Virus record (IMG/VR): IMGVR_UViG_3300011827_000030
Span: 1 to 39,646 of that record
Direction: 5' to 3' (one strand)
Length of the DNA stretch: 39,646 nucleotides
Source: a virus
Taxonomy: Duplodnaviria; Heunggongvirae; Uroviricota; Caudoviricetes
The translations under genes were made by a program, and so were the position numbers. Positions 2,834 to 39,376 of the stretch are shown in pieces. The notes beneath the pieces were generated by a model. It did not search any database, was not told the DNA's origin, and saw nothing but the letters and a program-made list of their open reading frames with translations. The stretch's first letter is position 1; each line of letters begins with the position of its first letter.

Positions 2834-3430
2834 TTAATTTGAAACTATTGTACTTCTTATACAAGCAACTACTTCAATATCAGAAAATGCACATTCAAAG
2901 CTATTCTCTGTACTTGTAATTTTAATCATACCTTTTGGAAGCTTTGTGATTTTTCGAATGGAATAGGTTCCGTCGATGTTGATTAACCAGTGCCCATCAA
3001 GTACTTCAGAAAATTTTTGATCACAAATGTATGTGACGAGCCCATCCTGAATAACAATTGGTGATGAAAGATTTGCAGGAAGAAATGATGAATCGAAGAC
3101 ATATGAACCATCTTCAATCATTTTGCCTGCGGTAAGGCGAAACTTGGCAAGCTCTTCTGTAGCTGCTGTCAGCGAGCTTTGCTTAAGGCCTTGCCCGGTG
3201 GTTAACCATTTCAGTGAGGTTCCTGTTTCAAGAGCACATTGGATTATCCAGTCTGCAGGAAACGTATCCCGCAAATACCTGTTCGCCAGAGTGCTTTTTG
3301 ATACTTCCAAGTGATCAGCTAAAGCCTGTCGTGTCGTAAAGCCATAAGCTTCGACTAATCGCTCAATCGCAGCCTTACCACCTTTATTGGGATTTATTTT
3401 GATCTCATTTGGGTACTTTGATGTTGACAT
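2834..3430 (-). CDS. cI: 186-type CI immunity repressor (CI-like HTH N-terminal domain)
   Basis: 198 aa; N-terminal ...STLANRYLRDTFPADWIIQCALETGTSLKWLTTGQG resembles the phage CI repressor HTH family; divergent from apl/cII across a promoter region. Confidence 0.8.
   Translation of the reverse strand: MSTSKYPNEIKINPNKGGKAAIERLVEAYGFTTRQALADHLEVSKSTLANRYLRDTFPADWIIQCALETGTSLKWLTTGQGLKQSSLTAATEELAKFRLTAGKMIEDGSYVFDSSFLPANLSSPIVIQDGLVTYICDQKFSEVLDGHWLINIDGTYSIRKITKLPKGMIKITSTENSFECAFSDIEVVACIRSTIVSN
3406..3418. repeat. Direct repeat CATTTGGGTACTT, copy 1 (candidate operator / Apl or CI binding site)
   Basis: Exact 13-mer repeated at 3465-3477 in the cI/apl switch region. Confidence 0.5.
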
Positions 3431-5330: not shown

Positions 5331-6184
5331 GCACCATCTTGAAATGGGCGGGAAATAAAACCGCCGTAATGTCCGAACTGAAAAAACATCTTCCTGCTGG
5401 TCCGCGACTAGTTGAACCTTTCGCGGGTTCCTGTGCTGTGATGATGGAGACGGATTATCCCTGCTATCTGGTTGCGGATATTAATCCTGATTTAATCAAC
5501 CTCTATAAAAAGGTTGCCGCTGATTGTGAATCGTTTATATCTCGCGCCAAAGTTTTATTTGAGATCGCAAACAGGGAGGTGGCTTATTACAACATAAGGC
5601 AGGAGTTTAATTACTCAACTGAAATTACTGATTTCATGAAAGCGGTATATTTCCTGTATCTCAATCGTCACGGTTACCGTGGGTTATGTCGCTATAACAA
5701 GAGCGGGCATTTCAACATTCCCTACGGTAATTATAAAAATCCGTATTTCCCTGAAAAAGAAATTCGCGCTTTTGCAGAAAAAGCCCAGCGAGCAACGTTT
5801 ATCTGCGCCAGCTTTGATGAAACGCTGGCGATGTTGAAGGCGGGGGATGTGGTGTATTGCGATCCGCCTTATGACGGTACGTTTTCCGGCTATCACGCTG
5901 ACGGCTTTACTGAAGATGACCAGTATCACCTGGCATCCGTTCTTGAACATCGGTCATCAGAAGGACATCCGGTCATTGTTTCTAACAGTGACACATCCCT
6001 GATCCGTTCGCTGTATCGCAATTTTACTCACCACTATATCAAGGTAAAACGCAGCATCGGCGTAGCAGCTGGTGAGAGTAAATCAGCAACAGAAATCATT
6101 GCTGTTTCCGGGCCGCGCTGCTGGGTGGGATTTGATTATTCGCGTGGCGTGGATAGTTCTGCCGTGTACGGAGTACGTGCATGA
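5327..6184 (+). CDS. dam: DNA adenine methyltransferase (Dam-like, GATC-type N6-adenine methyltransferase)
   Basis: N-terminal LKWAGNK and PFAGS motifs plus DPPY catalytic motif ([14 protein letters not shown]); RBS GGAGG; ATGA overlap with the upstream gene. Confidence 0.85.
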
Positions 6185-8595
6185 GCCATGCCGATATGAG
6201 CAACTGCTGCGGCTTTAACGAGGCTGCCGCATCGTTCTCATGGAACAGCCCGAAAAAGGCCATTAACCCTTATCTGGACCCGGCGGAAGTTGCGCCGGTT
6301 TCTGCGCTTTCAAACCTGATCACTCTGTACGCTGCCGATAACGAGCAGGAACAACTGCGCCGCGAGGCACTGAGTGATCAGGTCTGGGAGCGTTATTTCT
6401 TTAATGAATCCCGTGATCCTGTCCAACGCGAAATAGAGCAGGATAAGCTCATTAGCCGGGCAAAGTTGGCGCATGAGCAGCAGCGTTTTAACCCGGACAT
6501 GGTCATTCTGGCAGACGTCAGCGCCCAGCCCTCCCATATCAGCAAGCCGCTGATGCAACGTATTGAATACTTCAGCAGCCTGGGCAGGCCAAAGGCTTAT
6601 TCCCGCTATTTACGTGAGACGATTAAGCCATGTCTGGAACGACTGGAGCATGTACGCGACAGCCAGCTATCTGCATCTTTTCGTTTTATGGCAAGCCATG
6701 TAGGGCTGGACGGCCTGCTGATTCTGCCTGAAATGAGTCAGGATCAGGTGAAACGCCTGTCTACCCTTGTCGCTGCGCATATGAGCATGTGCCTTGATGC
6801 AGCTTGTGGTGATTTGTATGCCACCGATGACGTTAAGCCAGAAGAAATCCGCAAGACATGGGAAAAGGTGGCAGCGGAAACCCTGCGTCTGGATGTCATC
6901 CCGCCTGCGTTTGAGCAACTCCGTCGGAAAAGAAACCGCCGTAAACCCGTGCCCTATGAACTCATTCCGGGTTCGCTGGCGCGTATGTTGTGCGCCGACT
7001 GGTGGTACCGGAAATTATGGAAAATGCGTTGCGAATGGCGGGAAGAGCAGTTGCGTGCTGTCTGCCTGGTCAGCAAAAAAGCATCTCCCTATGTCAGCTA
7101 TGAAGCCGTGATGCATAAACGTGAGCAGCGCCGCAAGTCACTGGAGTTTTTCCGTTCTCATGAACTGGTGAACGAAGAGGGCGACACGCTGGATATGGAA
7201 GACGTGGTAAACGCCAGCAGCAGCAACCCGGCGCACCGCCGCAATGAGATGATGGCCTGTGTTAAAGGTCTGGAGCTTATCGCGGAAATGCGCGGTGACT
7301 GCGCCGTTTTCTACACCATTACCTGTCCGTCACGTTTCCATTCCACGCTCAATAACGGCAGACCAAACCCAACCTGGACAAATGCGACGGTAAGACAAAG
7401 CAGCGATTATCTGGTCGGCATGTTTGCTGCATTTCGTAAGGCGATGCACAAAGCCGGGTTGCGCTGGTATGGCGTGCGGGTGGCTGAGCCGCATCATGAC
7501 GGTACAGTTCACTGGCACCTGTTGTGTTTCATGCGCAAAAAAGACCGCCGCGCCATTACTGCATTGTTGCGTAAGTTTGCCATCCGTGAAGACCGCGAGG
7601 AACTGGGTAATAACACTGGTCCACGCTTTAAATCTGAGCTGATAAACCCGCGCAAAGGAACGCCGACAAGCTACATCGCGAAATACATCAGTAAGAACAT
7701 TGACGGGCGTGGTCTGGCTGGCGAGATCAGCAAGGAAACGGGTAAATCCCTGCGTGATAACGCTGAATACGTTAATGCCTGGGCGTCTCTGCATCGTGTT
7801 CAGCAATTCCGCTTCTTTGGTATTCCGGGACGTCAGGCTTACCGTGAACTTCGCTTGCTGGCTGGTCAGGCGGCAAGGCAACAGAGTGACAAAAAAGCAG
7901 GTGCGCCGGTACTGGATAACCCGCGTCTTGATGCCATTCTGGCTGCTGCTGATGCTGGTTGTTTTGCCACCTACATCATGAAGCAGGGCGGCGTACTGGT
8001 TCCCCGCAAATATCACCTCATCAGAACCGCTTATGAAATCAACGAAGAGCCAACCGCCTATGGCGATCACGGTATTCGTATTTATGGCATCTGGTCACCC
8101 ATTGCAGAGGGCAAGATCTGCACTCATGCAGTGAAGTGGAAAATGGTTCGTAAGGCCGTTGACGTTCAGGAGGCGGCAGCCGACCAGGGCGCTTGCGCCC
8201 CTTGGACTCGTGGCAATAACTATCCCCTTGCTGAAAATTTGAACCAACAGGAGAAAGATAAATCAGCTGATGGGGACACCAGAACGGACATTACCCGCAT
8301 GGATGACAAGGAGTTGCACGATTACTTGCACAGTATGAGCAAAAAAGAGCGCCGGGAACTGGCTGCAAGGTTACGCCTGGTTAAACCGAAACGGCGTAAA
8401 GACTACAAACAGCGAATTACAGACCATCAGCGACTGCAGCTCGTCTATGAGCTGAAGTCCAGAGGATTTGATGGTAGCGAGAAAGAGGTCGATTTACTCC
8501 TTCGCGGCGGCAGTATTCCGTCAGGAGCAGGCCTGCGTATCTTCTATCGGAACCAGCGTTTGCAGGAAGATGATAAGTGGCGGAACCTGTATTAA
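6181..8595 (+). CDS. A: Replication initiation protein A (rolling-circle nicking endonuclease, P2 gpA-like)
   Basis: 804 aa; HUH-type motif (GTVHWHLL) and active-site tyrosine motif ([14 protein letters not shown]) typical of P2 A; conserved position after the early genes. Confidence 0.9.
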
Positions 8596-8664
8596 TTACG
8601 CGGGTTAACAATTCGTGCTCTTAATAATACCAGGCATATCAGGCTGATGAACGTAAAAAAACGT

Positions 8665-8693
8665 TTTACATCAGTAATATTATTATATACTGT
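8665..8693 (+). promoter_or_regulatory. Candidate sigma70 promoter whose -10 overlaps the LexA box
   Basis: TTTACA at 8665-8670 with TATACT/TACTGT about 15-17 nt downstream. Confidence 0.4.
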
Positions 8694-8707
8694 AAATATA
8701 AACAGTG
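8688..8707. promoter_or_regulatory. LexA (SOS) box taCTGTaaatataaACAGtg
   Basis: Perfect CTGT-N8-ACAG with an AT-rich centre, about 40 nt upstream of the small ORF and dinI-like gene. Confidence 0.7.
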
Positions 8708-8747
8708 GTTGTCTATACAGTATTGATTTGGTGTCATAGGAGGAAAG

Positions 8748-8936
8748 ATGCAGGACTATTTTTTGGAGTCTTTGAAGCTCCAGCGCATTGATTTTTTTCT
8801 TAAGCTTGTAGCGGCTAGTGAGTGTAGTGATGAAGAGAAGGGGCTGGCTCTGCAGTGGGTTTCTGAACTGACAGATGAACTCATGGCAAAAATCAGAACC
8901 CACGAATACAACCGCTCAATGGATGTCATCAGCTGA
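8748..8936 (+). CDS. Small SOS-box-associated protein (possibly Tum-like antirepressor; unverified)
   Basis: 62-aa ORF with RBS AGGAGG immediately upstream, directly downstream of the LexA box; functional call is by analogy to the 186 SOS-controlled antirepressor, not by recognised sequence. Confidence 0.45.
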   Translation: MQDYFLESLKLQRIDFFLKLVAASECSDEEKGLALQWVSELTDELMAKIRTHEYNRSMDVIS

Positions 8937-8946
8937 GGTGACTTTT

Positions 8947-9180
8947 ATGCGCATTGAAATAATGATCGATAAAGAGCAGAAGATTAGCCAGTCTACACTG
9001 GACGCCCTTGAATCCGAGCTTTACCGCAATCTGCGCCCCCTGTATCCCAAAACGGTAATCCGTATCCGTAAAGGTAGCTCTAACGGTGTGGAACTGACCG
9101 GACTGCAACCGGACGAAGAAAGAAAACAAGTGATGAAAATTATGCAGAAGGTGTGGGAAGACGACAGCTGGCTGCATTAA
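8947..9180 (+). CDS. dinI: DinI-family protein
   Basis: 77 aa, MRIEIMIDKEQKISQSTLDALESELYRNLRPLYPKTVIRIRKGSSNGVELTGL...VWEDDSWL aligns by eye with E. coli DinI. Confidence 0.85.
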   Translation: MRIEIMIDKEQKISQSTLDALESELYRNLRPLYPKTVIRIRKGSSNGVELTGLQPDEERKQVMKIMQKVWEDDSWLH

Positions 9181-9624
9181 GAAATGTTGCCCCCAGGAGG
9201 ATTCATTCTAATGGGGGCTAGTTTGGGCAACGAGTGAAACGAGGCGTAAGGTGGGTAATCATTTTGATAAGTGATCGCCCACTTTGTGCCAAAAGCGGAC
9301 ATCGCAGATATGACAATATGTTAGTCAACCGCGATTAGATCAGTCAGTTGGAGATGGGGGGAAGTTACAAAAACTTGTCGTCCGCCATCTCCGACTACGG
9401 GTATTCTTAACTGTACATGCTCTTTCAATCGATGATTTTTGAGTAAGTGACTAACCTATTGTTTTGATAGTAATTAAACGTATAAACGTGCGGAGTTAAT
9501 TTGAAAGTTATGTGTCTATGTTTGACAAGCAAAATTTTAAAGATTGGTTTTATCCACAGGTAATTTATGCTATTAATAGCCTCAAGCCCTGTAATTATTT
9601 TTATTTAAATGGATAAATTTGAAA

Positions 9625-11745
9625 ATGAGTACATATCATAATGATCAGCCAATACTAGGTGGTCAAAATGACCCCGATTTATTAAACAGGCTCGATTTTG
9701 CAAATCACTTGGCAAATATTCTACTATTAAATCACAATGATGATTGCCTTACTGTATCTATAGAGGCAGAGTGGGGATATGGTAAAACGTCAGTGATAAA
9801 TCTTATAAAAGGTGCTTTGAATGAAAAGGAGTTCTTACCAATAATAATAGAATATAATCCATGGCTGGCCGGTCAACCTGAATCCTTGATTCAGGATTTT
9901 TTATTACAGTTCTCTTCACAACTAAATATTAAAGACAATTCAAAAGCTGCTTTGGAAGCTTCAAAAGAATTAATTGCATACTCCAATCTCTTCAGTGTAG
10001 CAAAACTTATTCCAGGGACAGAACCTTGGGCATCTATCATAGAAAAAGTCCTCTCTAATTTTGGGAGTGCTACTAAAAAGATTGCTGAATTAAAAAAACT
10101 GGATCTTTTAGGTAGAAAAAAACAAGTAGAGAAGGCAATAAAAAAAATAAAAAATCCTATTGTGGTAATAATTGATGATTTTGATCGATTGACTCCTACA
10201 GAAACTTTTCAAGTTTTACGATTGGTTAAAGCAGTTGCAGATTTCTCAGGAACTTCTTTTTTACTTGCATTTGATCCTAATTATTTGATTTCTGTGCTTG
10301 ATAAAAATAATATCGTCAATTCTTCGGAGTATCTTAATAAAATTGTTCAACTTCGAGTCCCACTTCCTGTAATCTCAGAAAGGGGTATGAATGAACTTGC
10401 AAATGCAGAACTGGAAAAGATAGCTAATAAATCTTTAACTGACAGATTCGAAAGTGATCAAGAAAGACTAAGCTGGATTTATCATAATTATTTTAAAAAA
10501 CTAATTAAGAATCCGAGAGAGTTAAAAAGATTTTTTAACCATTTGAGATTCGTTTTAGAGCAAATTGAAGGGCAGGTATGTTTTTCTGATCTCTTTGCTT
10601 TATCTCTGGTTGCCACTAAATCGAGTTTGGTATACGAGCATATTAAAAGCACACCAGAGGCATATATAGGGAAGAGATTCACTAATGATGGCCTTTTGAT
10701 GGATAAACCTCAAGATATTGTGGATAGATTTAGTGATGAGCGAAATAAGAAACTGAGTAATTTTTCTGATCAAGAGCGTTCAGTGATGCAGGAACTCTTA
10801 GGAGATATTTTCCCACTTCTACAGTCAAGCGGGTATTCTCATTATGGGGTTTCTGATCCCGATACAGCAGGAAGGGTTTCTGCACCACAAAGGCTTCATA
10901 TTGCGTTTCATTATAAAACTCCAGCAGGGTATATTTCTGATCATGATATTATCAGTTTCATTAATGGAGATGTTAAAAGAAACGAATTTCTAAGAGATGT
11001 GCTCTCGCAAAATGCAGAAGAAAGATTTTTTGAAATGATGAATAATTATTCGAGTTATTGTAAGGATAATAGTTTTGAAATATTAACGTGTATTTATGAT
11101 ACTTTTCTGTTTTCTCAAGAATTGAAATCCTCATTGGAAAGAAACTATGGTTTTTTGACAAAAGATCTTTATAGAAGGATGAATTGGCTCACTAATAAGG
11201 TAATATCTGAAAGTGATGATAAATATGGGTTAATAAAGGGGGTTGTAGGTAGGCATGAGAATGCGCCACTTGGTGCAGACGTATTATGCCAAGCTCGTAA
11301 ACAGATTCAAAATGGATGGAATGACAAAATATGGGTTAGTATTGAAGAATTGGCTGAACTTGAAGGTATCTTTCAACAGGTGGCTATTAAAGTTTTAAGT
11401 GATAAAATATATTTTGATTATCATCTTGAATCTCATATATTTTTCGAATTAAAGAGAGTTTCATCTCAATTTACATCAGAGTTTATTGCTTCTGTATTAT
11501 CAAGTGATGGCCTGATTAGGATGTGTGAGATTATTGGTGAAACAGGTAGTGATTCAACAAATGGCCCTTTTTTTAAGTTTGATGAAATTTACTTCGGGGA
11601 AATACTTGATGTGAATGAACTTCGAAATAAAGCGAAAAATTTAGATTTTTCAATTTATCCCACACGCATTCAAGCTGTACTTAAGAGTATTCTGGATGGA
11701 CAAAAATATTATTTGAGAGATGCAACTGTTGGTGAAGATTGGTAA
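9625..11745 (+). CDS. KAP-family P-loop NTPase (cargo, candidate defence gene)
   Basis: 706 aa from ATG 9625; Walker A EAEWGYGKTS (9766-9792) and Walker B hhhhDDFDR (IVVIIDDFDRLTPTE) with a long helical C-terminal region, the KAP NTPase signature; gene is AT-rich; no obvious TM helices. Confidence 0.8.
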   Translation: MSTYHNDQPILGGQNDPDLLNRLDFANHLANILLLNHNDDCLTVSIEAEWGYGKTSVINLIKGALNEKEFLPIIIEYNPWLAGQPESLIQDFLLQFSSQLNIKDNSKAALEASKELIAYSNLFSVAKLIPGTEPWASIIEKVLSNFGSATKKIAELKKLDLLGRKKQVEKAIKKIKNPIVVIIDDFDRLTPTETFQVLRLVKAVADFSGTSFLLAFDPNYLISVLDKNNIVNSSEYLNKIVQLRVPLPVISERGMNELANAELEKIANKSLTDRFESDQERLSWIYHNYFKKLIKNPRELKRFFNHLRFVLEQIEGQVCFSDLFALSLVATKSSLVYEHIKSTPEAYIGKRFTNDGLLMDKPQDIVDRFSDERNKKLSNFSDQERSVMQELLGDIFPLLQSSGYSHYGVSDPDTAGRVSAPQRLHIAFHYKTPAGYISDHDIISFINGDVKRNEFLRDVLSQNAEERFFEMMNNYSSYCKDNSFEILTCIYDTFLFSQELKSSLERNYGFLTKDLYRRMNWLTNKVISESDDKYGLIKGVVGRHENAPLGADVLCQARKQIQNGWNDKIWVSIEELAELEGIFQQVAIKVLSDKIYFDYHLESHIFFELKRVSSQFTSEFIASVLSSDGLIRMCEIIGETGSDSTNGPFFKFDEIYFGEILDVNELRNKAKNLDFSIYPTRIQAVLKSILDGQKYYLRDATVGEDW

Positions 11746-12189
11746 TACTTTTATAGGCATGCTTAGAGATGATGGAGTATCTTTTTCTCCCTTTTGAGGA
11801 AGTGATTTCCAACTGGGCATGGATGCCACATCAAATGGACAGTTGTTGTCACCTGTCAGTTAGCTGCTATTTGTTTATAGCAGCTGAAAGCCCACTACAT
11901 AGTTACACCAGAAGGACTAACAATGTAGTGGATAGCTAAATTTGACCACCTTAACAGATATGTTAATTTCCCCCCCCTCGCTCACAGCGGACTTTCATCT
12001 TTGTAAACCCTTATAATTCGCTTTTCAGCGGTCATTCAGATACGGATTTACGCTTTCCTTGGCAGTGCATGACTATGACGCATGAGATCGCATGATAGTT
12101 TGAGGATCGTTTTTGCTGAGGCCAGCCAGAACTGGCGTGCTTTTGCTTATGTCATGCAGGTGCATGAAAACCACTACATAAAGTGGGCA

Positions 12190-12208
12190 GGCGTGGCGGG
12201 GATACGAG
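12190..12208. other. cos: Candidate cos site (cohesive-end region) GGCGTGGCGGGGATACGAG
   Basis: First 13 nt match the 186/P2 cohesive-end sequences as I recall them (GGCGTGGCGGGGA...), followed by a GCGCGC element; sits in a 600-bp non-coding, higher-GC stretch at the A-side/Q-side junction where cos lies in P2. Confidence 0.5.
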
Positions 12209-12341
12209 CGCGCGTTATGACAAATAGATGATTAGCCTGATTTATTTACAGCTGTATAAATGATCACCTTGTAATTAGGTAAGTAATGTCTTCTATTATC
12301 ATTGATTTGATAGGATTAATCTGTTTTTTGAGGATTAGAGG

Positions 12342-14678
12342 ATGATTGAAGAGGTAGTTATTGACAAGGTAGGCTCATATAATGGCCCTACGCAGCTTTT
12401 ACATGGACTTTCTAAATTTAACTATTTATATGGAGCTAATGGTGCAGGTAAAACAACTATAAGTAAAATTATTAATGACCCTGAACAATATCCAACATGT
12501 CCGATTAAATGGAAAAATAATATATCTTTAATAAGCTACGTATATAATAAAGATTTTGTTGAAAGAAATTTTAGTCAAGATAAAATTAAAGGTGTATTTA
12601 CCCTTGGTAGCGATCTTAAGGAGGATGAAGAGAAACTAATATCTCTTAAAGAAGAAAAAAATAAGCTAATGGAATCTATTATAGCAAAGGAAAAGTTAAT
12701 AGATGGTGGTGATAATGAATTAGGCGTTATTAAAAAAATCGAAGACCATGAAAAATCTTTTAAAGATTCATGTTGGAAGCAAAAAGTAAAACATGACAAT
12801 GTGTTCTCAAAGGCTTTTGAGGGATTAAGGAATAGTAGTGAAAAATTTAAAGCCAGAGTGTTGGCTGAGTATGAAAATAATACATCAGAAGTTTGCTCAA
12901 TAGCAGAGTTAATTGAGAAAGCAAAAATTGTTTTTTCTACTGAATTGACATCACATGTATCAATTACAATTCCATCCTTCAATGGGATAGATGATATTTT
13001 GAGTAGGGAAGTTTGGAGTGAGCGCATCCTAGGGAAAAAAGACGTTAGTGTTTCAGACTTAATTACAATGCTCAATAACAGTGATTGGGTTAAGGAGGGT
13101 TTAACATATTTCAGTAAATCTAATCCCAAGTGCCCATTCTGCCAGCAGGATGTAAATGATAATATATTTGATAATCTTTCATCATATTTTGATAAAACAT
13201 ATGAGTTAAAAAAAAGAGAAATCGATGCATTGGTTTTACAATATGAATATCAACTTAATAATATCTTGAAGGCGATAGATGATATAAGGGCGATTAAATC
13301 TCCATTCATAAATTATGAAGTGTTTGAGGATAAGGCTAAGATAGTATTATCTGAATTAAACAAGAATTTTGAATTGGCAAAAAATAAACGCAATTTTTTA
13401 AGTGAATCAGTTCATTTTAGTGACTTAAGTGAAGTTGTTGATGATTTTATTTCTTTTTTGAATGATTCAAATCTATTGATAGATAATAATAACAAAATAC
13501 ATAGTAATAGAAAGGTAGAGGCTAGTAATCTTTCTAAGCAGATATGGGCATATATCGTAAAGGTGGAGTTAAAGTCTGAAATAACTTCTTACCGTAGCAA
13601 ATCTGATAAATTTAATAGGACGTTACAAGGACTTAAATCTGGGATAGAAGAAGACAAAAAGAAGTTAATGTTAAATACTTCGGCTATTGAGGCAATTGAG
13701 TCTAATAAAACCAGTACTCTTCCAACTATTACAAAAATTAACAAGATTCTGGACTCTTATGGCTTCAAAAATTTTTACTTAAAACCCTCCGAAGATAAAA
13801 AGCATTATATGATAGTGAGAGATAGTGGAGATAATGCTCGTACAACCCTTAGTGAGGGAGAAAAGACATTTATCACTTTTTTGTACTTTTATAGCCTTGT
13901 TAGAGGGAGTGATAATGCATCAGGTGTTTTAGATGATCGTGTTGTAGTATTTGATGATCCAATTTCAAGTTTAGATAGTGATATTCTGTTTATTGTAAGT
14001 TCGTTGATTAAAGATTTAATGGAGGATGTTCGTAAGGATGAAGGAAATATTAAGCAAATTATATTCCTTACTCATAATATTTATTTTCATAAAGAGTTGA
14101 CTTTTAATACCAAAAGATCCGGTAATCAAGCAATGAAAGAGGAGACTTTTTGGATTGTAAGGAAAAAAGGGAAGGTTTCATATCTTGAAAAGTGCGAATC
14201 AAACCCAATAAAAACGTCTTATGATTTGCTCTGGTGCGAATTGAGAAGAACAGACATTAATAATAATACTATACAAAATACAATGCGAAGGATTTTGGAG
14301 AATTACTTTAAGATATTAGGTGGGATGGATATTAGGAAGCTTGAGTGTCATTTTTATGGTGATGAAAAAATCATATTTAAATCTTTAGTGTCATGGATTA
14401 ATGATGGTTCCCATTTTGCAGGTGATGATCTTTATATGAATTTAGATACGGAGTCTGTGCAAAAATATTTAATTGTTTTTCAGAAGATATTTGAATGTAG
14501 TGAGCATACTGCCCATTACAAAATGATGATGGGTGAGTTTTATAAACCGTTAAATGAGTCACTTCATCTACAAGATGAGTTTGATATAGATGATAGTGCG
14601 AATGATGAGTATGCTTCGTCAAAAATTGAGATAAAAGATGGAATAAACACATCTCTACATAGCAACACATATTTGTAA
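12342..14678 (+). CDS. RloC-like ABC/SMC-type ATPase with coiled-coil insert, CxxC zinc hook and PrrC-like C-terminal putative nuclease (cargo, candidate defence gene)
   Basis: 778 aa; Walker A GANGAGKTT (12432-12458); CPFC at 13131-13142 near the middle of the predicted coiled coil; signature-like LSEGEKT, Walker B VVVFDDP, H-loop FLTHN; C-terminal region contains RRILE and IRKLECH (14334-14351); RBS AGAGG; AT-rich. Confidence 0.75.
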   Translation: MIEEVVIDKVGSYNGPTQLLHGLSKFNYLYGANGAGKTTISKIINDPEQYPTCPIKWKNNISLISYVYNKDFVERNFSQDKIKGVFTLGSDLKEDEEKLISLKEEKNKLMESIIAKEKLIDGGDNELGVIKKIEDHEKSFKDSCWKQKVKHDNVFSKAFEGLRNSSEKFKARVLAEYENNTSEVCSIAELIEKAKIVFSTELTSHVSITIPSFNGIDDILSREVWSERILGKKDVSVSDLITMLNNSDWVKEGLTYFSKSNPKCPFCQQDVNDNIFDNLSSYFDKTYELKKREIDALVLQYEYQLNNILKAIDDIRAIKSPFINYEVFEDKAKIVLSELNKNFELAKNKRNFLSESVHFSDLSEVVDDFISFLNDSNLLIDNNNKIHSNRKVEASNLSKQIWAYIVKVELKSEITSYRSKSDKFNRTLQGLKSGIEEDKKKLMLNTSAIEAIESNKTSTLPTITKINKILDSYGFKNFYLKPSEDKKHYMIVRDSGDNARTTLSEGEKTFITFLYFYSLVRGSDNASGVLDDRVVVFDDPISSLDSDILFIVSSLIKDLMEDVRKDEGNIKQIIFLTHNIYFHKELTFNTKRSGNQAMKEETFWIVRKKGKVSYLEKCESNPIKTSYDLLWCELRRTDINNNTIQNTMRRILENYFKILGGMDIRKLECHFYGDEKIIFKSLVSWINDGSHFAGDDLYMNLDTESVQKYLIVFQKIFECSEHTAHYKMMMGEFYKPLNESLHLQDEFDIDDSANDEYASSKIEIKDGINTSLHSNTYL

Positions 14679-14691
14679 TTTTATTACAATT

Positions 14692-14717
14692 GCCAGTAGC
14701 AACAATACGGTACTGGC
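14692..14717. terminator. Hairpin GCCAGTA-N12-TACTGGC between the convergent RloC-like gene and Q (weak terminator candidate)
   Basis: 7-bp inverted repeat with an adjacent AT-rich palindrome TTGTAATTTTATTACAA; no clean U-tract. Confidence 0.3.
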
Positions 14718-14727
14718 AACTAATATT

Positions 14728-15759
14728 TTAGTTAAGCTCATATGGAGAAAATTCTATAAGTTTTTCCCCGAGCCATGCATTAATTTCTCTAAATCGTTTT
14801 TGCAAAGGAATTAATTCATTTATCACAAAAACCTTACTAGCCTTCTCCACATCCCCAAACCCCCCGACATTATTAGGCATAATCCCCATCATTTGCGGTG
14901 GAACGCGGTGTGCCGCCATCATGTCATCGCGACTAACATTTTTGATATTCAGAAACTCATCCTTCGCTGCGACTTCTGATAACGGGATAATCTGAAGCCC
15001 GTCCTTTTTGCCGTTAGGTGAGTACATAAACAGGTTGCGGAAGTTGCCCGGCCCTTTGGCGCTTTTCATCGCATTGCGGAGGTTGTTCACATCCTCCTGG
15101 TTTTGCGCGGCATCGGTCATATACATGATGAAGCCTGCATGGCTGCCGTTGATGTAATACTTGCGGCGGAACAGCGTGGCGGACTCGTTGAGCAAAGCGG
15201 ATGGGATGGCAGAAAGATAACCGGGCAGGCCGTAGATCTCCTGGTTGATGTCCGGTTCCATCAGATGAAAGATGCTGCCTTTCGTGAACTGATACGGCTG
15301 TGTTGTCATACCGTATTGCACAAACCAGTAGGTTTCCAGGTCTAACCCGCGTCGGGTGTATTTTGCCAGGGCCGGTTCAAGGGCGATAACTTCACCGAAG
15401 CGGTTCGTGCGTTTCTCCAGGTAGGCGTTACCAAATACCAGATAGTCCTGCACAAAACGTGAAAAAGCCTGCTGGCTGAGCAGCGGGTGAGGGATGTAGG
15501 TACTGGTCAGAATGTTGCATTTTACTGCAATCGGGGAGCTGTGATGCACGGCAGCGCGGAAGGTGCGTGCCAGTCCGTCAAAACTTACGGGTGGCTCATA
15601 CCAGCGATCCGTCTGTACGCATTCCACATAGTCCAGCAGTTCGCGGCGGTCCAGTACAGGAATGGGATCACCAAAGCTGAAAGCTTCGGCTGAAGTTTGA
15701 TTTTTATGCTGGCTCTGTTTCGTCGCCGCAGCGCGGTTTTTCTTACTCTTTCCCATCAA
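14728..15759 (-). CDS. Q: Portal protein (P2 gpQ-like)
   Basis: 343 aa, length and position as P2 Q; leftward, overlapping the terminase gene by 4 nt. Confidence 0.85.
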   Translation of the reverse strand: MMGKSKKNRAAATKQSQHKNQTSAEAFSFGDPIPVLDRRELLDYVECVQTDRWYEPPVSFDGLARTFRAAVHHSSPIAVKCNILTSTYIPHPLLSQQAFSRFVQDYLVFGNAYLEKRTNRFGEVIALEPALAKYTRRGLDLETYWFVQYGMTTQPYQFTKGSIFHLMEPDINQEIYGLPGYLSAIPSALLNESATLFRRKYYINGSHAGFIMYMTDAAQNQEDVNNLRNAMKSAKGPGNFRNLFMYSPNGKKDGLQIIPLSEVAAKDEFLNIKNVSRDDMMAAHRVPPQMMGIMPNNVGGFGDVEKASKVFVINELIPLQKRFREINAWLGEKLIEFSPYELN

Positions 15760-23118: not shown

Positions 23119-24870
23119 CTATTGGTTGAATATAAAGCTGATAATATTTTCAGGAGTGAGCTCTATGTTTTTTTTATTAAGTTTTTGAATGTACATTTTA
23201 TATTTCATTTCAACGTTTCGGAAGCCTTGCGCAACAGAAAGTATTTCTACAGGATGAGATGAAAGCTTTATTAAGGAGTTAATGACTGCATCTAGGTAGA
23301 TGTGAGCATGTTCAACTAAAACATTTGTTTTTGATGGGGTTTTTCCAGTGTGAACTATCAAGTTTCTAGTTCTATATATTCTCCTAATTTGCCAGTTGAT
23401 TCTTTCTGCATGATTTTTAAGTGCCTGATACATAGTATCAGTTGAGGAAATTAAATTGCTAATATATTCAAATCTCTCTTTCAATAACGGAAATTGTGAG
23501 AGTTCTATCTTAAACTGATTGATGCTAGGGGCATGTTCTTGCGAAGCAACAAGAATTACAAATGATTTGGCTGCATCGCTATCTCCAATTAGTCTTAGAA
23601 GTGACATGGTTCGAGGATGATTCCATCGTTGTAAGTCTTTTATAAGATTCCTTACTAGGTCTTCAATATAATTCAGGTTTAAAAATGGTGTTAATGAATT
23701 AACGATATGTTCTATCGTGGATTGTTCTTCTTTTTTTGATTCGTCGGGGATGAGTGATTCAATAGCAATCCATAAATTTAAAAGCTGATTTTCTACAGCA
23801 TTTGTCTGTAGTGCCATTGAATGTAATTGTACACTTCTTATGAATTTATTGAAAGAATCCTTGCGCATTCTGAAATTATTCATGAATTGTTCGAGTCTTC
23901 TGCTTGCGTGTTCCTGAACCAGATCCTTGCAGCGGTGCATTGGGTTTATGCTGCTTCTTATATTGATTTTTTCACCATTTTCACTAACTACAATGTTCTC
24001 TGCAGACCATGATGCTTCTTGCTTATGATGATAGAGAGAAAGCAAAGTTGATGCGAGCTTTAAGTTTCTTTCAGCTACCCTTCTAGCCGTGAATGGATCA
24101 AGTGCTTTAACATGCTTAACTAAAATAGTTCGTTGTTCATGATTATCGAAGAAATCTGTTTCATTAATATTTTCGGGGGTTTCAAGAACAACCTCAATTT
24201 CTAATTGTGATAAGCATGGAGTAATATAACTAAAAGATTTGTCAGCATTGAAATAAACTGAATATTCTTGTGTCTCTGAGGGGATGTTCTCTAGGAATGT
24301 AATAATCTCTTCATTTGAACTGATCTCTCGTTCTCTTTGGAAGAAATGTTTTTTTAGACTTTCCATCAAATATTCTTGACTTAATCCTTTTGATATTAGG
24401 TGGGTAATCAACAGTCTTGTAAACTTTCGAATTTTATTTGGGTTGTATTCTGAAGTTATTGTAGAGCAAAGTTCACTGATGAGTTTGCTTTCATAATTAT
24501 CAACATTAAGTTGAACTCTCAGTAATTCAAGAGTTATTTTTAGATTTTTATTTCCTAACTGATTGTTTTGGAGTTGATCTAAAAATGAACCTAAAGGGTT
24601 TTTTAGAAGACTGATTGCGATGTCATCATTCTTAATATTTTTAGTTAATTCGTCAATGACGTGGGATATATGTGCGGGGCTTATGTTGCCTTTTTCTATA
24701 TCATCGATTGTTGATATTGCTTCTATACATAAACTTGGAGTGTTCATTATAGAAGGTTTATATGTACTATGGGTGTAATCAAAGAGAAGTTCCTCCATTA
24801 ACTCGGTGAAATAAATAAGCGCAGTGCATTGTTCAATATGATTCCAGTTGTGTAGTCTTCTAAATTTCAT
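23119..24870 (-). CDS. Cargo protein with C-terminal HEPN-like RNxxxH motif (candidate abortive-infection RNase), inserted between S and V
   Basis: 583 aa from ATG 24870 (RBS AAGG upstream; the listed ORF extends to a TTG at 24990); motif IRRIYRTRNLIVHTG encoded at 23350-23373; opposite strand to flanking tail genes; AT-rich. Confidence 0.7.
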   Translation of the reverse strand: MKFRRLHNWNHIEQCTALIYFTELMEELLFDYTHSTYKPSIMNTPSLCIEAISTIDDIEKGNISPAHISHVIDELTKNIKNDDIAISLLKNPLGSFLDQLQNNQLGNKNLKITLELLRVQLNVDNYESKLISELCSTITSEYNPNKIRKFTRLLITHLISKGLSQEYLMESLKKHFFQREREISSNEEIITFLENIPSETQEYSVYFNADKSFSYITPCLSQLEIEVVLETPENINETDFFDNHEQRTILVKHVKALDPFTARRVAERNLKLASTLLSLYHHKQEASWSAENIVVSENGEKINIRSSINPMHRCKDLVQEHASRRLEQFMNNFRMRKDSFNKFIRSVQLHSMALQTNAVENQLLNLWIAIESLIPDESKKEEQSTIEHIVNSLTPFLNLNYIEDLVRNLIKDLQRWNHPRTMSLLRLIGDSDAAKSFVILVASQEHAPSINQFKIELSQFPLLKERFEYISNLISSTDTMYQALKNHAERINWQIRRIYRTRNLIVHTGKTPSKTNVLVEHAHIYLDAVINSLIKLSSHPVEILSVAQGFRNVEMKYKMYIQKLNKKNIELTPENIISFIFNQ

Positions 24871-24914
24871 ATTAATACCTTGTTTTGTGAAGCTTGAATT
24901 TACCTTTAGCGCAT

Positions 24915-24932
24915 TGTTTGTTGCTTCATACA
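24915..24932. promoter_or_regulatory. Late-activator (Ogr) site TGT-N12-ACA upstream of V
   Basis: TGTttgttgcttcatACA, part of the longer palindrome tgtttgttgcttcatacaaaca, in the 108-bp gap between the cargo gene start and V. Confidence 0.5.
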
Positions 24933-24978
24933 AACATGGTTTGTTTGTGATCTCAAGTGTTTGATTAAGAATTTGAGA

Positions 24979-25557
24979 ATGAACGTACAACTCACGGAAA
25001 TCATGCGCCTTATCACCAATCTGATCCGCACAGGGGTAGTCACCGAAGTGGACCGGGAAAACTGGCTTTGCAGGGTGAAAACGGGCGAGCTTGAAACCAA
25101 CTGGATCAGCTGGCTGACGCTACGTGCCGGAAATGCCCGGACATGGTGGCGACCATCGGAAGGTGAGCAGGTGGTGCTGCTGAGTCTGGGCGGCAATCTG
25201 GAAACAGCCTTTGCGCTGCCCGCCATCTATTCGAATCAGTTTGCACCGCCGTCGACGTCGGCGGACGCCTGCGTGACAGAACATCCTGACGGTGGCTGGT
25301 TTGAATATGAACCCGCCACCGGGCGCTGGTATGTCAGGGGCATCAAATCAATGGTCATTGAGGCCGCTGATAACATCACCATGAAAACCAGTGAGTTTGT
25401 ACTGGAGGCTGACCGCACGCGCATTAACAGCGAAGTGGTGATCAATGGTGGCGTTACCCAGGGCGGCGGAGCGATGAGTTCTAACGGGATTGTGGTTGAT
25501 GCACATCAGCATACTGGCGTCCTGAAAGGCGGCGACACAACCGGAGGCCCGGTATGA
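24979..25557 (+). CDS. V: Baseplate spike / assembly protein (P2 gpV-like)
   Basis: Contains IRTGVVTEVD...WWRPSEGEQVVLLSLGGNLETAFALPAIYS, resembling P2 V as recalled; start ambiguous between ATG 24979 and ATG 25003. Confidence 0.8.
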   Translation: MNVQLTEIMRLITNLIRTGVVTEVDRENWLCRVKTGELETNWISWLTLRAGNARTWWRPSEGEQVVLLSLGGNLETAFALPAIYSNQFAPPSTSADACVTEHPDGGWFEYEPATGRWYVRGIKSMVIEAADNITMKTSEFVLEADRTRINSEVVINGGVTQGGGAMSSNGIVVDAHQHTGVLKGGDTTGGPV

Positions 25558-35414: not shown

Positions 35415-36511
35415 ATTTCAGCTCTGAACTGCTTAACAAAGGCAACAAAACTCCGGCATTCAGCATCAGTATTGAAGGCAGGGATATCACCACTGTGCTG
35501 GACAACCGCCTGATGGGGCTGACGCTGACGGATAACCGGGGATTTGAAGCGGACCAGCTTGATCTGGAGCTGGACGACGCCGATGGAAAAATCGTGCTGC
35601 CGCGCCGTGGTGCGGTCATTACGCTGGCGCTGGGCTGGAAGGGGCAGCCGCTTTTCCCGAAAGGGGCATTCACGGTGGACGAGATTGAACACACTGGCGC
35701 ACCGGACCGCCTGACTATCCGGGCGCGAAGTGCTGATTTTCGGGAAACCCTGAATACCCGCCGTGAAAAATCTTGGCACAAGACCACCGTCGGGGAAGTG
35801 GTAAAGGAAATAGCCGCGCGTCACAAGCTGAAGATGGCGCTGGGTAAAGACCTGTCGGATAAGCCCGTGGAACATATAGACCAGACTAATGAGAGTGACG
35901 GCAGTTTTCTGATGCGGCTGGCGCGACAGTACGGTGCCATCGCGTCGGTGAAAAATGGCAATCTGCTATTCATCCGGCAGGGGCAGGGCAAAAGCGCCAC
36001 TGGTAAACCACTGCCAGTGATCACTATCACACGCAAGGACGGCGACAGTCACCGCTTTACCCTGGCAGATCGCGGAGCCTACACGGGCGTAATTGCCAGC
36101 TGGTTGCATACCCGCGAACCTGCGAAGAAAGAAAGCACCACGGTGAAGCGTAAGCGCAGAACTAAGAAGCAGAAGAAAGAGCCAGAAGCGAAGCAGGGCG
36201 ATTACCTGGTGGGTACGGATGAAAACGTGCTGGTACTTAATCGCACTTATGCCAACCGGAGCAACGCCGAACGAGCGGCGAAAATGCAGTGGGAACGCCT
36301 GCAACGCGGCGTTGCGTCATTCTCGCTACAACTGGCAGAAGGGCGGGCAGATCTCTACACGGAAATGCCAGTGAAAGTCAGTGGCTTTAAACAGCCGATA
36401 GATGATGCGGAATGGACCATTACGACTCTGACGCATACCGTCAGCCCGGATAACGGTTTTACGACCAGTCTGGAGCTTGAAGTGAGGATTGATGATTTCG
36501 AAATGGAATGA
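35411..36511 (+). CDS. D: Tail protein D (P2 gpD-like, late control gene D)
   Basis: 366 aa from a GTG overlapping the U stop; position as P2 D. Confidence 0.8.
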   Translation: MNFSSELLNKGNKTPAFSISIEGRDITTVLDNRLMGLTLTDNRGFEADQLDLELDDADGKIVLPRRGAVITLALGWKGQPLFPKGAFTVDEIEHTGAPDRLTIRARSADFRETLNTRREKSWHKTTVGEVVKEIAARHKLKMALGKDLSDKPVEHIDQTNESDGSFLMRLARQYGAIASVKNGNLLFIRQGQGKSATGKPLPVITITRKDGDSHRFTLADRGAYTGVIASWLHTREPAKKESTTVKRKRRTKKQKKEPEAKQGDYLVGTDENVLVLNRTYANRSNAERAAKMQWERLQRGVASFSLQLAEGRADLYTEMPVKVSGFKQPIDDAEWTITTLTHTVSPDNGFTTSLELEVRIDDFEME

Positions 36512-36601
36512 TTCTTCGCAATGGAGAACTTTTAAGTTTGCAAAATGGAATAATGCGGTATCATTATTGTGAATTTAGCAAAAATGGGGAGAACTCGAAA
36601 A

Positions 36602-36820
36602 ATGATGATTTGCCCACTGTGTGGAAGTGCCGCCCATACTCGCAGCAGTTTTCAGGTATCTTCATTGACCAAAGAGCGTTACAACCAGTGCCAGAACATT
36701 AACTGCAGCCATACTTTTGTTACCCATGAAACTTTTGTTCGTTCGATTGCAACGCCAAAAGAGTCAAATCCGGTTCAGCCGCATCCAATGAAATCAGGAC
36801 AGGTGGCGCTCTCTCTTTGA
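36602..36820 (+). CDS. ogr: Ogr/Delta-family zinc-finger late transcription activator
   Basis: CPLCGSAAH...ERYNQCQNINCSHTF...PHPMKSGQ aligns by eye with P2 Ogr (four-Cys zinc finger); last phage gene before the att repeat; start could be 36602 or 36605. Confidence 0.85.
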   Translation: MMICPLCGSAAHTRSSFQVSSLTKERYNQCQNINCSHTFVTHETFVRSIATPKESNPVQPHPMKSGQVALSL

Positions 36821-36843
36821 CGCTGCCGCCATTTTGTCGCCAT
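36821..36843. other. attR: Putative attR core (right copy of the direct repeat)
   Basis: cgctgccgccattttgtcgccat, 22/23 identical to 19-41; begins at the first base after the ogr stop codon. Confidence 0.6.
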
Positions 36844-37040
36844 CGTTAAAAAACAGTGCTTCTAACATCATGATTTTAAACAGCTTAAATTTCAGGCAAC
36901 AAAAAACCCATCAACCTTGAACCGAAGTGGCGGGGGTGGTGGGCTCCCCAAAAAGGGGACATCAAAGAAAAGCAGTGGCATTACTTATGACTGATGCCCT
37001 GAGAAAAAGTTCTGCCTGTGACGGCTTTTTTCTCAAAAAA

Positions 37041-38726
37041 TTATTGTAGCCCTGGCCAGATGATCACGATGAGCGTCCCGGCAAGGGTAAGCAGCACGTT
37101 GGCGATGGCGTAGGTCCCTGCGTAGCCGAGCGCTGGAATATTGCTGCGCGCGGTATCGCTGATGATCTCCATCGCCGGGGCGCAGGTGCGGGCTCCCATC
37201 ATGGCGCCGAACAGCATCGCCCGGTTCATGCGCAGCACGTAGGCGCCGAACAGGAAGCAGATCACCACCGGCACCAGGCTGACGATAAGCCCTGCCGCCA
37301 GCATCTGGCCGCCGACGGCGCCCAGCCCGTTATTGATCCCGGCCCCGGCGCTGAGACCGACCCCGGCCATAAACACCATCAGACCAAACTCTTTCACCAT
37401 GTTCAGCGCCCCCTGCGGGATATAGCCGAAGGTTGGGTGGTTGGCGCGCAGGAAGCCAAGCATGATGCCGGCGAACAGCAGGCCGGCGGCGTTGCCGATG
37501 CCGAAGCTGAAGGAGCTGAACTGGAAGGTGATCATGCCGATCATCAGGCCAACGATAAAGAAGGCGCAGAAGGCCAGCAGATCGGTCACCTGGCTGTGAA
37601 TGGAGATAAAGCCGATGCGGTCGGCCACGGTTTTTACGCGGCGGGCGTCGCCGCTGACCTGCAGCACGTCGCCTTTGTTCAGTACGACGTTATCGTCGAT
37701 AGGCATCTCGATCTGGCTGCGAATAACCCGGTTTAAGAAGCAGCCGTGGTCGGTAAGCTTGAGCTGCGCCAGGCGGCGGCCGACGGCGTTGTGGTTTTTG
37801 ACCACAATCTCTTCAGTGACGATGCGCATGTCGAGCAGATCGCGGTCGAACACCTCTTTACCGTTGCGGAAGCTCGGGTCGAGGCGGGCGTGGGCGTCCG
37901 GGTAGCCCACCAGCGCAATATCGTCACCCATCTGCAGCACCGCGTCGCCGTCCGGGTTGGCCAGAATACCGTTGCGACGAATGCGTTCAATATAGCAGCC
38001 GGTCTGGCGGTAAATACCCAGTTCGCGCAGATTTTTGCCATCCGCCCAGGCCACCAGCTCCGGGCCGACGCGGTAGGCGCGGATCACCGGCAGGTAGACT
38101 TTACGTTTGGAATCGGTATCGAGGCCGCGCTCGCGGGCGATTTGCTGGGCGCTGGTCTGCAGATCCTGATGCTGCAGCTTGGGCATATAGCGGGCGCCGA
38201 CGATCAGGCTCACCAGACCAACCAGATAGGTCAGGGCATAGCCGAGGCTCAGATGGTCAAGCGACTGCGCCAGCTGATCGCTGGGCAGGCCGAAATGGCG
38301 CAGGGTGTCGCCCGCGCCCACCAGCACCGGGGTGGAGGTCATGGCGCCTGCCAGCATACCGGCGGTGAGCCCGATATCCCAGCCGAACACTTTACCCAGC
38401 ATCATGGCGATCAGCATCGCGCTGCCGACCATCACCAGCGCCAGCATCAGGTAGTTTTTCCCGTCGCGGAAAAAAATAGAAAAAAAGTTGGGCCCGGCTT
38501 CTACGCCAACGCAAAAAATAAACAGCATAAAGCCGAGATTAAGGGCATCGGTGTTAATCGCGAAATGCTGCTGGCCTAATAATAGAGAAACGACTAAAAC
38601 GCCAATGGAATTACCAAGTTGTACTGAGCCGAGACGCAGTTTTCCCAGGCATAGTCCTAATGCAAGTACAACGAATAATAACAGGATGTAATTCCCGTTT
38701 AACAAATCTGCGACGTTTATATTCAC
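37041..38726 (-). CDS. ybjL: Putative transport protein YbjL (AAE-family transporter with TrkA-C domains); host gene
   Basis: Translation is near-identical over its length to E. coli YbjL as I recall it (…[33 protein letters not shown]…); start taken as the GTG giving MNINVA. Confidence 0.85.
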
Positions 38727-38992
38727 GAAAGCCAACTTCTCATTTACTAGTAAGTTGTTGAAGGAAATGGTTATTTGGTCTAAGGTTGCTCAGGCGTTCG
38801 CGTTGTCGCGAACCTATTCTGGCACCCTGTTATAACCAGCAAAAATATACCGCTAGTTTAATCCTTCCTGGATGCGGCGGCTAGTGACAATCGTTTTTAG
38901 GCTGGTAGGGGAGTTATTGGCATGGATTGCCGAAATGCTTTATCTGACTGGGCGACGTGGACGTGAGTTAGAGGCAACATCAGGAGGATACG

Positions 38993-39376
38993 GTGAAATC
39001 TGAGCGTAGTTGGGCCGGCATTATCTGTGGCTTCGTTCTGTTCATTGTGGTGTGCTTATCGTTGTTGTTACATATGAAAGGGGCATTTCGCGCCAGCGGC
39101 AACCCGGAGCTGGGCCTGCTCTTCTTTTTGCTGCCAGGGGCGGCGGCGAGCTGTCTCTCTCCCGGACGGCGGGTGCTGCGTCCTTTGCTCGGCGCGATAC
39201 TGGCGGCGCCGGTCTGCATGGTGACGATGCGGCTGTTCTTCGTGACCCACCGGACGTTCTGGCAGGAGATGGCGTGGGTGTTGAGCGCCGTGTTCTGGTG
39301 CGCGCTTGGGGCATTGTGCTTTTTGTTTATCTGCGCCTGGCTTGATACCTGGCGCAGTCATTCATCGAGCAAATAA
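38993..39376 (+). CDS. ybjM: Inner membrane protein YbjM; host gene
   Basis: 127-aa hydrophobic protein resembling E. coli YbjM; GTG start with RBS CAGGAGGA; conserved synteny ybjL-ybjM-grxA. Confidence 0.75.
   Translation: MKSERSWAGIICGFVLFIVVCLSLLLHMKGAFRASGNPELGLLFFLLPGAAASCLSPGRRVLRPLLGAILAAPVCMVTMRLFFVTHRTFWQEMAWVLSAVFWCALGALCFLFICAWLDTWRSHSSSK

Follow-up and report, generated by a model that had tools for sequence, protein, structure and literature searches.

The stretch of DNA analysed here, called the window, comprises 39,646 nucleotides of the Caudoviricetes record IMGVR_UViG_3300011827_000030 in IMG/VR, and it is a P2/186-like Escherichia coli prophage. Its interval 9181-14727, between the replication gene A and the portal gene Q, is a low-GC island with 31-33% GC, compared with ~50-53% in the flanking phage genes. 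Two large open reading frames (ORFs), both on the + strand, occupy the island: one encodes a KAP-family P-loop NTPase of 706 amino acids (aa) (9625-11745; ATG start at 9625, preceded by a TTG at 9619), the other an RloC-family protein of 778 aa with the Pfam domain AAA_13 (12342-14678). Their GC contents are 0.333 and 0.306, against 0.529 for gpA and 0.499 for Q. An earlier reading made from the letters alone, hereafter the sequence-only reading, had described an accessory island of two AT-rich genes in higher-GC phage DNA at the A/Q junction, and both its coordinates and its composition are confirmed. The region 8600-15000 is 100% identical to a prophage in E. coli D7 and in four other complete genomes. 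We propose, with a probability of roughly 0.7, that the island is the cos-proximal defence hotspot of a 186/P2-like prophage, in which cos splits two exchangeable cassettes, one for an RloC-type abortive tRNase and one for a one-protein KAP system working in the manner of PifA.

The A-Q locus next to cos is a published defence hotspot of P2-like prophages (Rousset 2022, PMC9122126; Vassallo 2022, PMC9519451; a 2026 preprint, 10.64898/2026.02.27.708500), and the window has its hallmarks, namely variable low-GC cargo between gpA and gpQ, beside cos. Rousset 2022 recorded 1,650 arrangements among 18,150 loci, and exactly this four-protein arrangement is listed in Table S5A of that study under the accessions annotated in D7. 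In Table S5B, this exact KAP protein is the representative of system #117 (KAP_NTPase/NB-ARC, 26 occurrences), and system #5 (AAA_13, 420 occurrences) is annotated 'RloC-like'. The sequence-only reading had taken the configuration to be undescribed and the strongest candidate for novelty in the window; this does not hold, as the hotspot, the arrangement, the KAP representative and the RloC-like label are all published and PADLOC models match both proteins. From their sequences, both genes appear to be members of known defence-associated families.

The gene on the right of the island encodes a protein whose features are those of the RloC family. The definition of RloC (Davidov & Kaufmann 2008, PMC2610378) asks for the motifs of an ABC ATPase, for a coiled-coil insert that bears a CxxC zinc hook and for a C-terminal triad of the form Arg-X3-Glu-X36-52-His; members range from 658 to 897 aa, and a Ser often precedes the triad His (PMC2610378). 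We judged membership by the motifs of this published definition. The ATPase carries a Walker A motif (GANGAGKT, residues 31-38), an ABC signature (LSEGE, 503-507), a Walker B motif (DDP, 538-540) and a switch histidine (H578). The zinc hook, C264-P-F-C267-Q, lies in the loop between two long helices of the predicted structure (~93-260 and 274-454), and the triad reads R649-x3-E653-x37-S690-H691. None of the ABC motifs, the CPFC hook or the triad residues varies among 46 homologues, the most distant of which have 41% identity. In the predicted structure (mean pLDDT 80), the ATPase head is Rad50-like by fold, the coiled-coil insert spans ~360 aa, and a disordered tail of ~44 aa forms the C terminus; the triad falls in a C-terminal PrrC/RloC-type anticodon-nuclease (ACNase) domain. 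The length of 778 aa is within the RloC range, and the gene is a stand-alone one, found solo in P2, P4 and island contexts. By its sequence, the protein thus has every sequence-defined feature of RloC, and the ABC motifs, the hook and the triad bear out its earlier description as an RloC-like zinc-hook ABC ATPase.

The sequence-only reading had proposed profile searches of both proteins against Pfam and defence-system models as a check, and these were run. They returned KAP_NTPase and AAA_13, respectively, and matches to the PADLOC models PifA and PDC-S06. For the right-hand protein, Pfam AAA_13 covers the full length (2.2e-163), PDC-S06 matches at 1.6e-266, and the PADLOC PrrC model matches aa 460-704 (5.4e-11). 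Identity with PrrC was considered and rejected, given the ~360-aa coiled-coil insert and the lack of hsd genes nearby. Homologues at 42-45% identity carry the JGI name 'wobble nucleotide-excising tRNase', and in Streptococcus prophages the annotation of relatives at 26% identity reads 'translation-disabling ACNase'. Solo homologues occupy the cos-Q slot of an Enterobacter prophage and the Psu-integrase hotspot of a P4 satellite, and one lies beside CBASS genes in a Pseudomonas contig. A PDB sequence search with the AAA_13 and KAP proteins gave chance-level matches only. The nuclease domain of RloC has been assigned to the HEPN class, and a relative carried by an E. coli prophage was noted already in 2013.

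The gene on the left encodes a KAP-family NTPase, as the sequence-only reading had stated for 9625-11745. Pfam KAP_NTPase (PF07693) matches aa 25-309 at 1.1e-45, covering model positions 4-288 of 293, and the Walker A (AEWGYGKTS) and Walker B (VVIIDD) motifs are conserved. The protein is soluble by prediction, with no transmembrane segment found in it (the top 19-residue Kyte-Doolittle mean is 1.48), and by fold its nearest neighbours are RADAR RdrA, ORC/Cdc6, Avs and NLR proteins. The PADLOC PifA model matches aa 3-447 (9.4e-64, 214 bits), which corresponds to model positions 4-456 of 720 (63%), and the PDC-S20 and QatA models match as well. The genuine IncF PifA (741 aa, with pifC upstream) scores 963 bits over its full length against the same PifA model; BLASTP aligns it with the window protein at 26% identity over aa 43-360 only, with no C-terminal similarity. 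We therefore reject the idea that the KAP protein is a true PifA, since the similarity is limited to the NTPase domain, the model is covered in part and no pifC lies upstream. RADAR RdrA and QatA were likewise rejected, as an RdrB deaminase and the partners QatB, QatC and QatD are all missing and the gene is single in all contexts examined. NCBIfam offers no usable family, its QatA model scoring 38 bits against a cut-off of 600.

The KAP protein has its own helical C-terminal domain (~aa 437-706). When 1.84 billion representative proteins were searched with the last 270 residues, only 38 clusters came up; all their full-length members measure ~690-720 aa, and the domain lies at the same place in each. 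As these few clusters all share one architecture, the domain is family-specific and has not been shuffled onto other proteins. Homologues of the whole protein occur widely in Enterobacterales, Vibrio, Aeromonas and Shewanella (67-88% identity), and in V. parahaemolyticus and Enterobacter the homologue stands solo amid housekeeping genes. The Enterobacter copy is homologous over window positions 9535-11988, which points to a mobile unit of ~2.45 kb that includes ~90 bp upstream and ~240 bp downstream of the gene. A small ORF within that unit (11769-11939, 56 aa) has no Pfam or PADLOC match and was treated as a non-coding spacer that travels with the KAP cassette. On sequence grounds, the KAP protein belongs to a narrow, soluble, partner-less subfamily that is PifA-like but distinct.

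Between the two genes, the cohesive-end core GGCGTGGCGGGGATACGAG at 12190-12208 aligns to the cohesive ends as annotated in P2 (GGCGAGGCGGGGAAAGCAC) and in 186 (GGCGTGGCGGGGAAAGCAT); upstream of the core, the flank CATAAAGTGGGCA is identical to the right end of 186. Judged by this alignment, the site is a genuine P2/186-type cos. The cos-like sequence suspected there from the letters alone is therefore real, and with a real cos separating them, the two genes lie at opposite ends of the packaged genome, as had been supposed.

The cassette anatomy was determined by blastn of the window against five other E. coli prophages. In comparison with prophages that hold other left cargo, homology breaks at 9190 or 9288 and again at 11978 or 12063-12065; in comparison with prophages that carry DprA or RES-domain genes on the right, it ends at 12214-12217 and returns at 14750 or 14797. 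Three blocks result: the left cargo, from 9191 or 9289 to 11977-12064; the cos block, from 12065 to 12214-12217; and the right cargo, up to 14749-14796. In its widest extent the left module (9191-12064, + strand) becomes the right end of the virion DNA, and the right module (12218-14749, + strand), which begins 6-10 bp past the cos core, becomes the left end. The cos block (12065-12217) is common to all compared prophages. On the right, the non-homology reaches 20-70 bp into the 3' end of Q (window 14728-14796), so that the last 7-23 portal codons are swapped together with the cargo. A repeat scan yielded short chance pairs alone, with nothing att-like and no repeats that bound the cassettes.

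The content of the two slots varies independently. Prophages that share the KAP gene have a DprA or a RES-domain protein in the right slot in place of AAA_13, and those that share the AAA_13 gene fill the left slot with DarT-macro (DarTG), DUF2971 or two hypothetical proteins. Close copies were counted among 5426 complete E. coli genomes, in which ~1274 records contain the flanking phage sequence (query 8600-15000). The KAP gene occurs in 18 records and the AAA_13 gene in 23; both are present in 9, KAP alone in 9 and AAA_13 alone in 14. A single KAP allele (99.7-100% identical) is seen together with either of two AAA_13 alleles (100% and 97.9%), which indicates, at the sequence level, exchange at cos. 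The comparison of the A/Q junction across related prophages, another check suggested beforehand, thus confirms turnover of cargo in both slots. The separate partners, the solo homologues and the breaks at the cos block support two separately exchangeable single-gene cassettes split by cos, in line with the sequence-only reading, which had taken the genes for independent single-gene modules. Damaged copies of the island also exist. The annotation splits the KAP gene of C21 and SCU-176 into two ORFs (match of 2120 bp vs 2121), in E. coli C21 the AAA_13 gene is cut at 51% beside an IS5-like element, and IS1 and IS903B insertions lie near the island in SCU-176 and CT29. These copies suggest occasional inactivation.

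Several points weigh against the explanation as a defence hotspot with two separate cassettes. No plaque or toxicity data were found for either exact protein, an accession search of the literature gave no paper, and neither AAA_13 nor KAP_NTPase is in the table of cloned systems of Rousset 2022. PADLOC calls the AAA_13 protein PDC-S06, and according to a preprint DefenseFinder missed one E. coli PDC-S06 protein. By Pfam, fold and context, the KAP protein has no recognisable effector domain, transmembrane segment or partner gene, and at ~70% identity between E. coli and both Vibrio and Aeromonas, with housekeeping neighbours, it is unusually conservative for a defence gene. Finally, the two genes co-occur in 9 records, compared with ~0.3 expected by chance over the ~1274 loci, which would fit clonal descent or cooperation.

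Cooperation would mean that the two ATPases form one two-gene system straddling cos, for instance with the KAP protein as a sensor that licenses the RloC-like nuclease. The excess of joint carriers among the 18 KAP and 23 AAA_13 records and the common strand of the genes are what this has in its favour. We consider it quite improbable, whether as one operon or as one system: each gene is found intact beside unrelated partners in other prophages, homologues stand alone at several kinds of site (chromosomes, the P2 slot, the P4 hotspot, defence islands), and homology breaks exactly at the conserved cos block. In addition, ~600 bp, including cos and hairpins, separate the genes, and characterised RloC is self-contained with an internal switch (PMC3458546). 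As several of the 9 joint records are near-identical prophages from related strains, we read the excess as probable clonal inheritance.

The conservation of the KAP protein raises a second alternative, namely that it is an accessory ATPase with some other role in the cell or in mobile elements and is a passenger here, not primarily anti-phage. Its identity of 67-88% over a wide range of hosts, housekeeping neighbours such as gcvP, the want of an effector domain and the copies that are split into two ORFs or lie beside insertion sequence (IS) elements would all fit. Moreover, a search of 50,697 deposited phage genomes turned up no KAP homologue, and according to the literature phage exclusion is perhaps not the primary role of PifA itself (PMC12632615). 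We nevertheless regard the passenger explanation as unlikely. The cargo of this locus is mostly defence; the gene is low in GC, patchy (18 of 5426 genomes) and mobile as a cassette; the PifA, PDC-S20 and QatA models of PADLOC match it; its fold neighbours are immune ATPases; and for other KAP NTPases protection against phage depends on Walker B (PMC12632615).

A third alternative assigns the island genes to the life cycle of the prophage itself, with a Rad50-like protein that processes or protects the cos ends, or with host shut-off on induction. Both genes directly adjoin cos, the left slot lies downstream of a LexA-box-like site, as with p95 of 186, and RloC homologues react to DNA breaks (PMC3874168). 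Such a function is the least probable of the three, and by a wide distance from a likely one: most P2-like prophages do without both genes, which are carried by ~1.4-1.8% of the ~1274 loci, and otherwise near-identical phages hold unrelated cargo in these slots. Furthermore, the C-terminal triad of the AAA_13 protein is of the tRNase type and not that of a DNA-end processor, and the family also occurs in P4 satellites and beside CBASS.

For the RloC-like protein, the mechanism can be proposed on the basis of published work. GkaRloC cuts the wobble nucleotide out of tRNA, its DNA-dependent ATPase turns the ACNase on, and zinc-hook mutations hyperactivate it (PMC2610378, PMC3458546); RloC is activated by inducers of double-strand breaks, both in heterologous hosts and in the native host (PMC3874168). 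By analogy with the Geobacillus and Acinetobacter proteins, the Rad50-like ABC head and the zinc-hook coiled coil would hold the C-terminal HEPN-type tRNase silent until DNA ends or damage made by infection stimulate DNA-dependent ATP hydrolysis. Hydrolysis would switch the nuclease on, and removal of the wobble nucleotide from particular tRNAs would then arrest translation and abort the infection.

The KAP protein, an AAA+/STAND-like NTPase by fold, is most likely sensor and executor in one, in the manner of the F-plasmid PifA. Its helical C-terminal domain may recognise a phage protein, upon which the NTPase would change state or oligomerise and the infected cell would be disabled. A PifA-style action is our best guess, made by analogy, and it draws support from other KAP NTPases that are validated defences: EF_KAP and its like are Walker-B-dependent single-gene systems (PMC12632615), and 'Reve', a KAP NTPase defence, was found in P4 hotspots (10.64898/2026.02.27.708500).

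Upstream of the island, the conserved left flank and the order of features recall phage 186. The replication endonuclease gpA (6181-8595, + strand; Pfam Phage_GPA PF05840, 1.6e-127; D7 annotation) is followed by a LexA-box-like CTGT-N8-ACAG (8690-8705, + strand), which lies 43 bp upstream of the next ORF and in the position of the 186 SOS promoter p95. This is the sole match of the pattern in the window, but at least one match arises in 33 of 100 shuffles, and the pattern alone is weak. The two genes that follow are semi-conserved flank and not cargo: a 62-aa conserved hypothetical protein (8748-8936, + strand; phrog_698, 3.6e-38; WP_001154434, found in every comparator prophage) and a DinI-like protein (8947-9180, + strand; Pfam DinI, 2e-22; D7 annotation), which matches phrog_189 positions 71-148 of 151 and corresponds to the C-terminal half of 186 Tum. 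Together they resemble Tum split into two genes, and 8690-9218 mirrors the p95-tum-t95a SOS operon of 186. Right after the DinI-like stop codon stands a GC-rich hairpin (9189-9218, + strand; folding energy -19.5 kcal/mol, z -2.3), which is a candidate for a partial terminator like t95a.

The annotation of 186 gives the order p95 with its LexA site, tum (DinI-like), the partial terminator t95a, orf97, the terminator t95b and cos, and states that orf97 blocks 186 infection when expressed. The window runs in parallel, with the LexA-box-like site, the 62-aa ORF, the DinI-like gene, the hairpin and then the KAP gene in the position of orf97. This parallel makes SOS-linked read-through into the left slot plausible by analogy. 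A bolder proposal, which we hold only as a tentative one and think rather unlikely, is that the KAP protein founds an immune mechanism of its own: a soluble STAND-like NTPase, free of an effector domain, whose C-terminal domain would both sense a phage factor and harm the cell, unlike PifA, RADAR and the transmembrane KAP proteins, with a LexA-controlled p95-type promoter that would tie its expression both to SOS and to prophage induction.

On the other side of the island, a hairpin lies between the convergent AAA_13 and Q genes (14691-14718; -16.7 kcal/mol, z -4.3, 0/200 shuffles), a candidate bidirectional terminator in the position of P2 tQ and 186 tW. The portal gene Q itself (14728-15759, - strand; Pfam Phage_portal PF04860, 2e-16; D7 annotation) forms the conserved right flank. 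Terminator-like sites are somewhat enriched overall (9 vs 3.1 expected), and only those at 9189-9218 and 14691-14718 are sensibly placed. A consensus promoter scan gave 31 sites against 26.2 +/- 5.3 expected, and we make no promoter claim. An imperfect hairpin at 9339-9402, in the spacer upstream of the KAP cassette, folds at -29.7 kcal/mol (z -3.9, 0/200 shuffles) and has no Rfam match; indeed, Rfam at a permissive threshold gave no match in the whole of 8500-14900.

The island is one part of the cargo of this prophage. Between the integrase (1-1053) and the CI repressor (2834-3430), a low-GC gene of 558 aa (1137-2813, - strand) matches PADLOC PD-Lambda-1 at 1e-119 and Pfam DUF4041 and T5orf172/MUG113, and by these matches it is a known type of single-gene defence. 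In the late region, a low-GC gene of 623 aa (23119-24990, - strand) takes the place that orf30 has in P2, between the homologues of S and V. It has a near full-length but weak PADLOC match to ApeA (1.6e-12) and no Pfam domain, and D7 lacks it at that position; going by its sequence, it may be a fourth defence cargo. The prophage thus holds four low-GC cargo genes in four separate slots. Two more short GC dips, at 36500-37000 and 38500-39000, lie near the right end of the window (0.43-0.44 vs ~0.55-0.62).

The locus is an example of how P2/186-like prophages bear immunity cassettes, each of them exchangeable, to the left and right of cos. Current understanding is not overturned; hotspot, arrangement and family labels have all been published before. 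With the RloC-like gene, E. coli offers a natural system in which to ask whether tRNases of the RloC type defend against coliphages, and what sets them off. The KAP gene, a candidate defence gene without an obvious effector domain, poses the more open question of the two, as it has no partner gene and a private C-terminal domain.

Compared with known systems, the AAA_13 protein stands closest to RloC of Geobacillus kaustophilus and Acinetobacter baylyi (PMC2610378, PMC3458546, PMC3874168), with which it shares the size, the zinc-hook insert, the R-x3-E-x36-52-(S)H triad and the lack of a restriction-modification partner. It differs from them in its place in a prophage cos-Q slot and in its disordered C-terminal tail. 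It is only 25% identical to the RloC-like AAA_13 representative of Rousset 2022, with which the zinc hook aligns. Like PrrC, it is an ABC ATPase fused to a C-terminal R/E/H tRNase domain; unlike it, PrrC lacks an insert with a coiled coil or zinc hook, reaches about half its size and always lies inside a silencing type I restriction-modification locus (PMC2610378). The KAP protein resembles PifA of the F plasmid, which excludes T7, in being a soluble KAP NTPase of similar length (706 vs 741 aa) with a helical C-terminal region of ~300 aa. PifA itself is a single-protein exclusion factor of the abortive type and is carried on a plasmid, whereas the window gene is carried on a prophage. EF_KAP (PMC12632615) has N-terminal transmembrane helices, unlike the window protein.

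As a locus, the nearest counterparts are old and tin of P2 and orf97 of 186, which share the position between gene A and cos (the slot of the KAP gene), the low GC, the non-essential character and an exclusion function. P2 Old, the canonical cargo of the hotspot, likewise combines an ABC ATPase and a nuclease effector, and a 2026 preprint reports abortive tRNase activity for it. The proteins of these counterparts are unrelated to those of the island; in P2 both cargo genes sit on the A side and are transcribed towards A, leaving the cos-Q side empty, whereas in the present prophage both sides of cos are filled.

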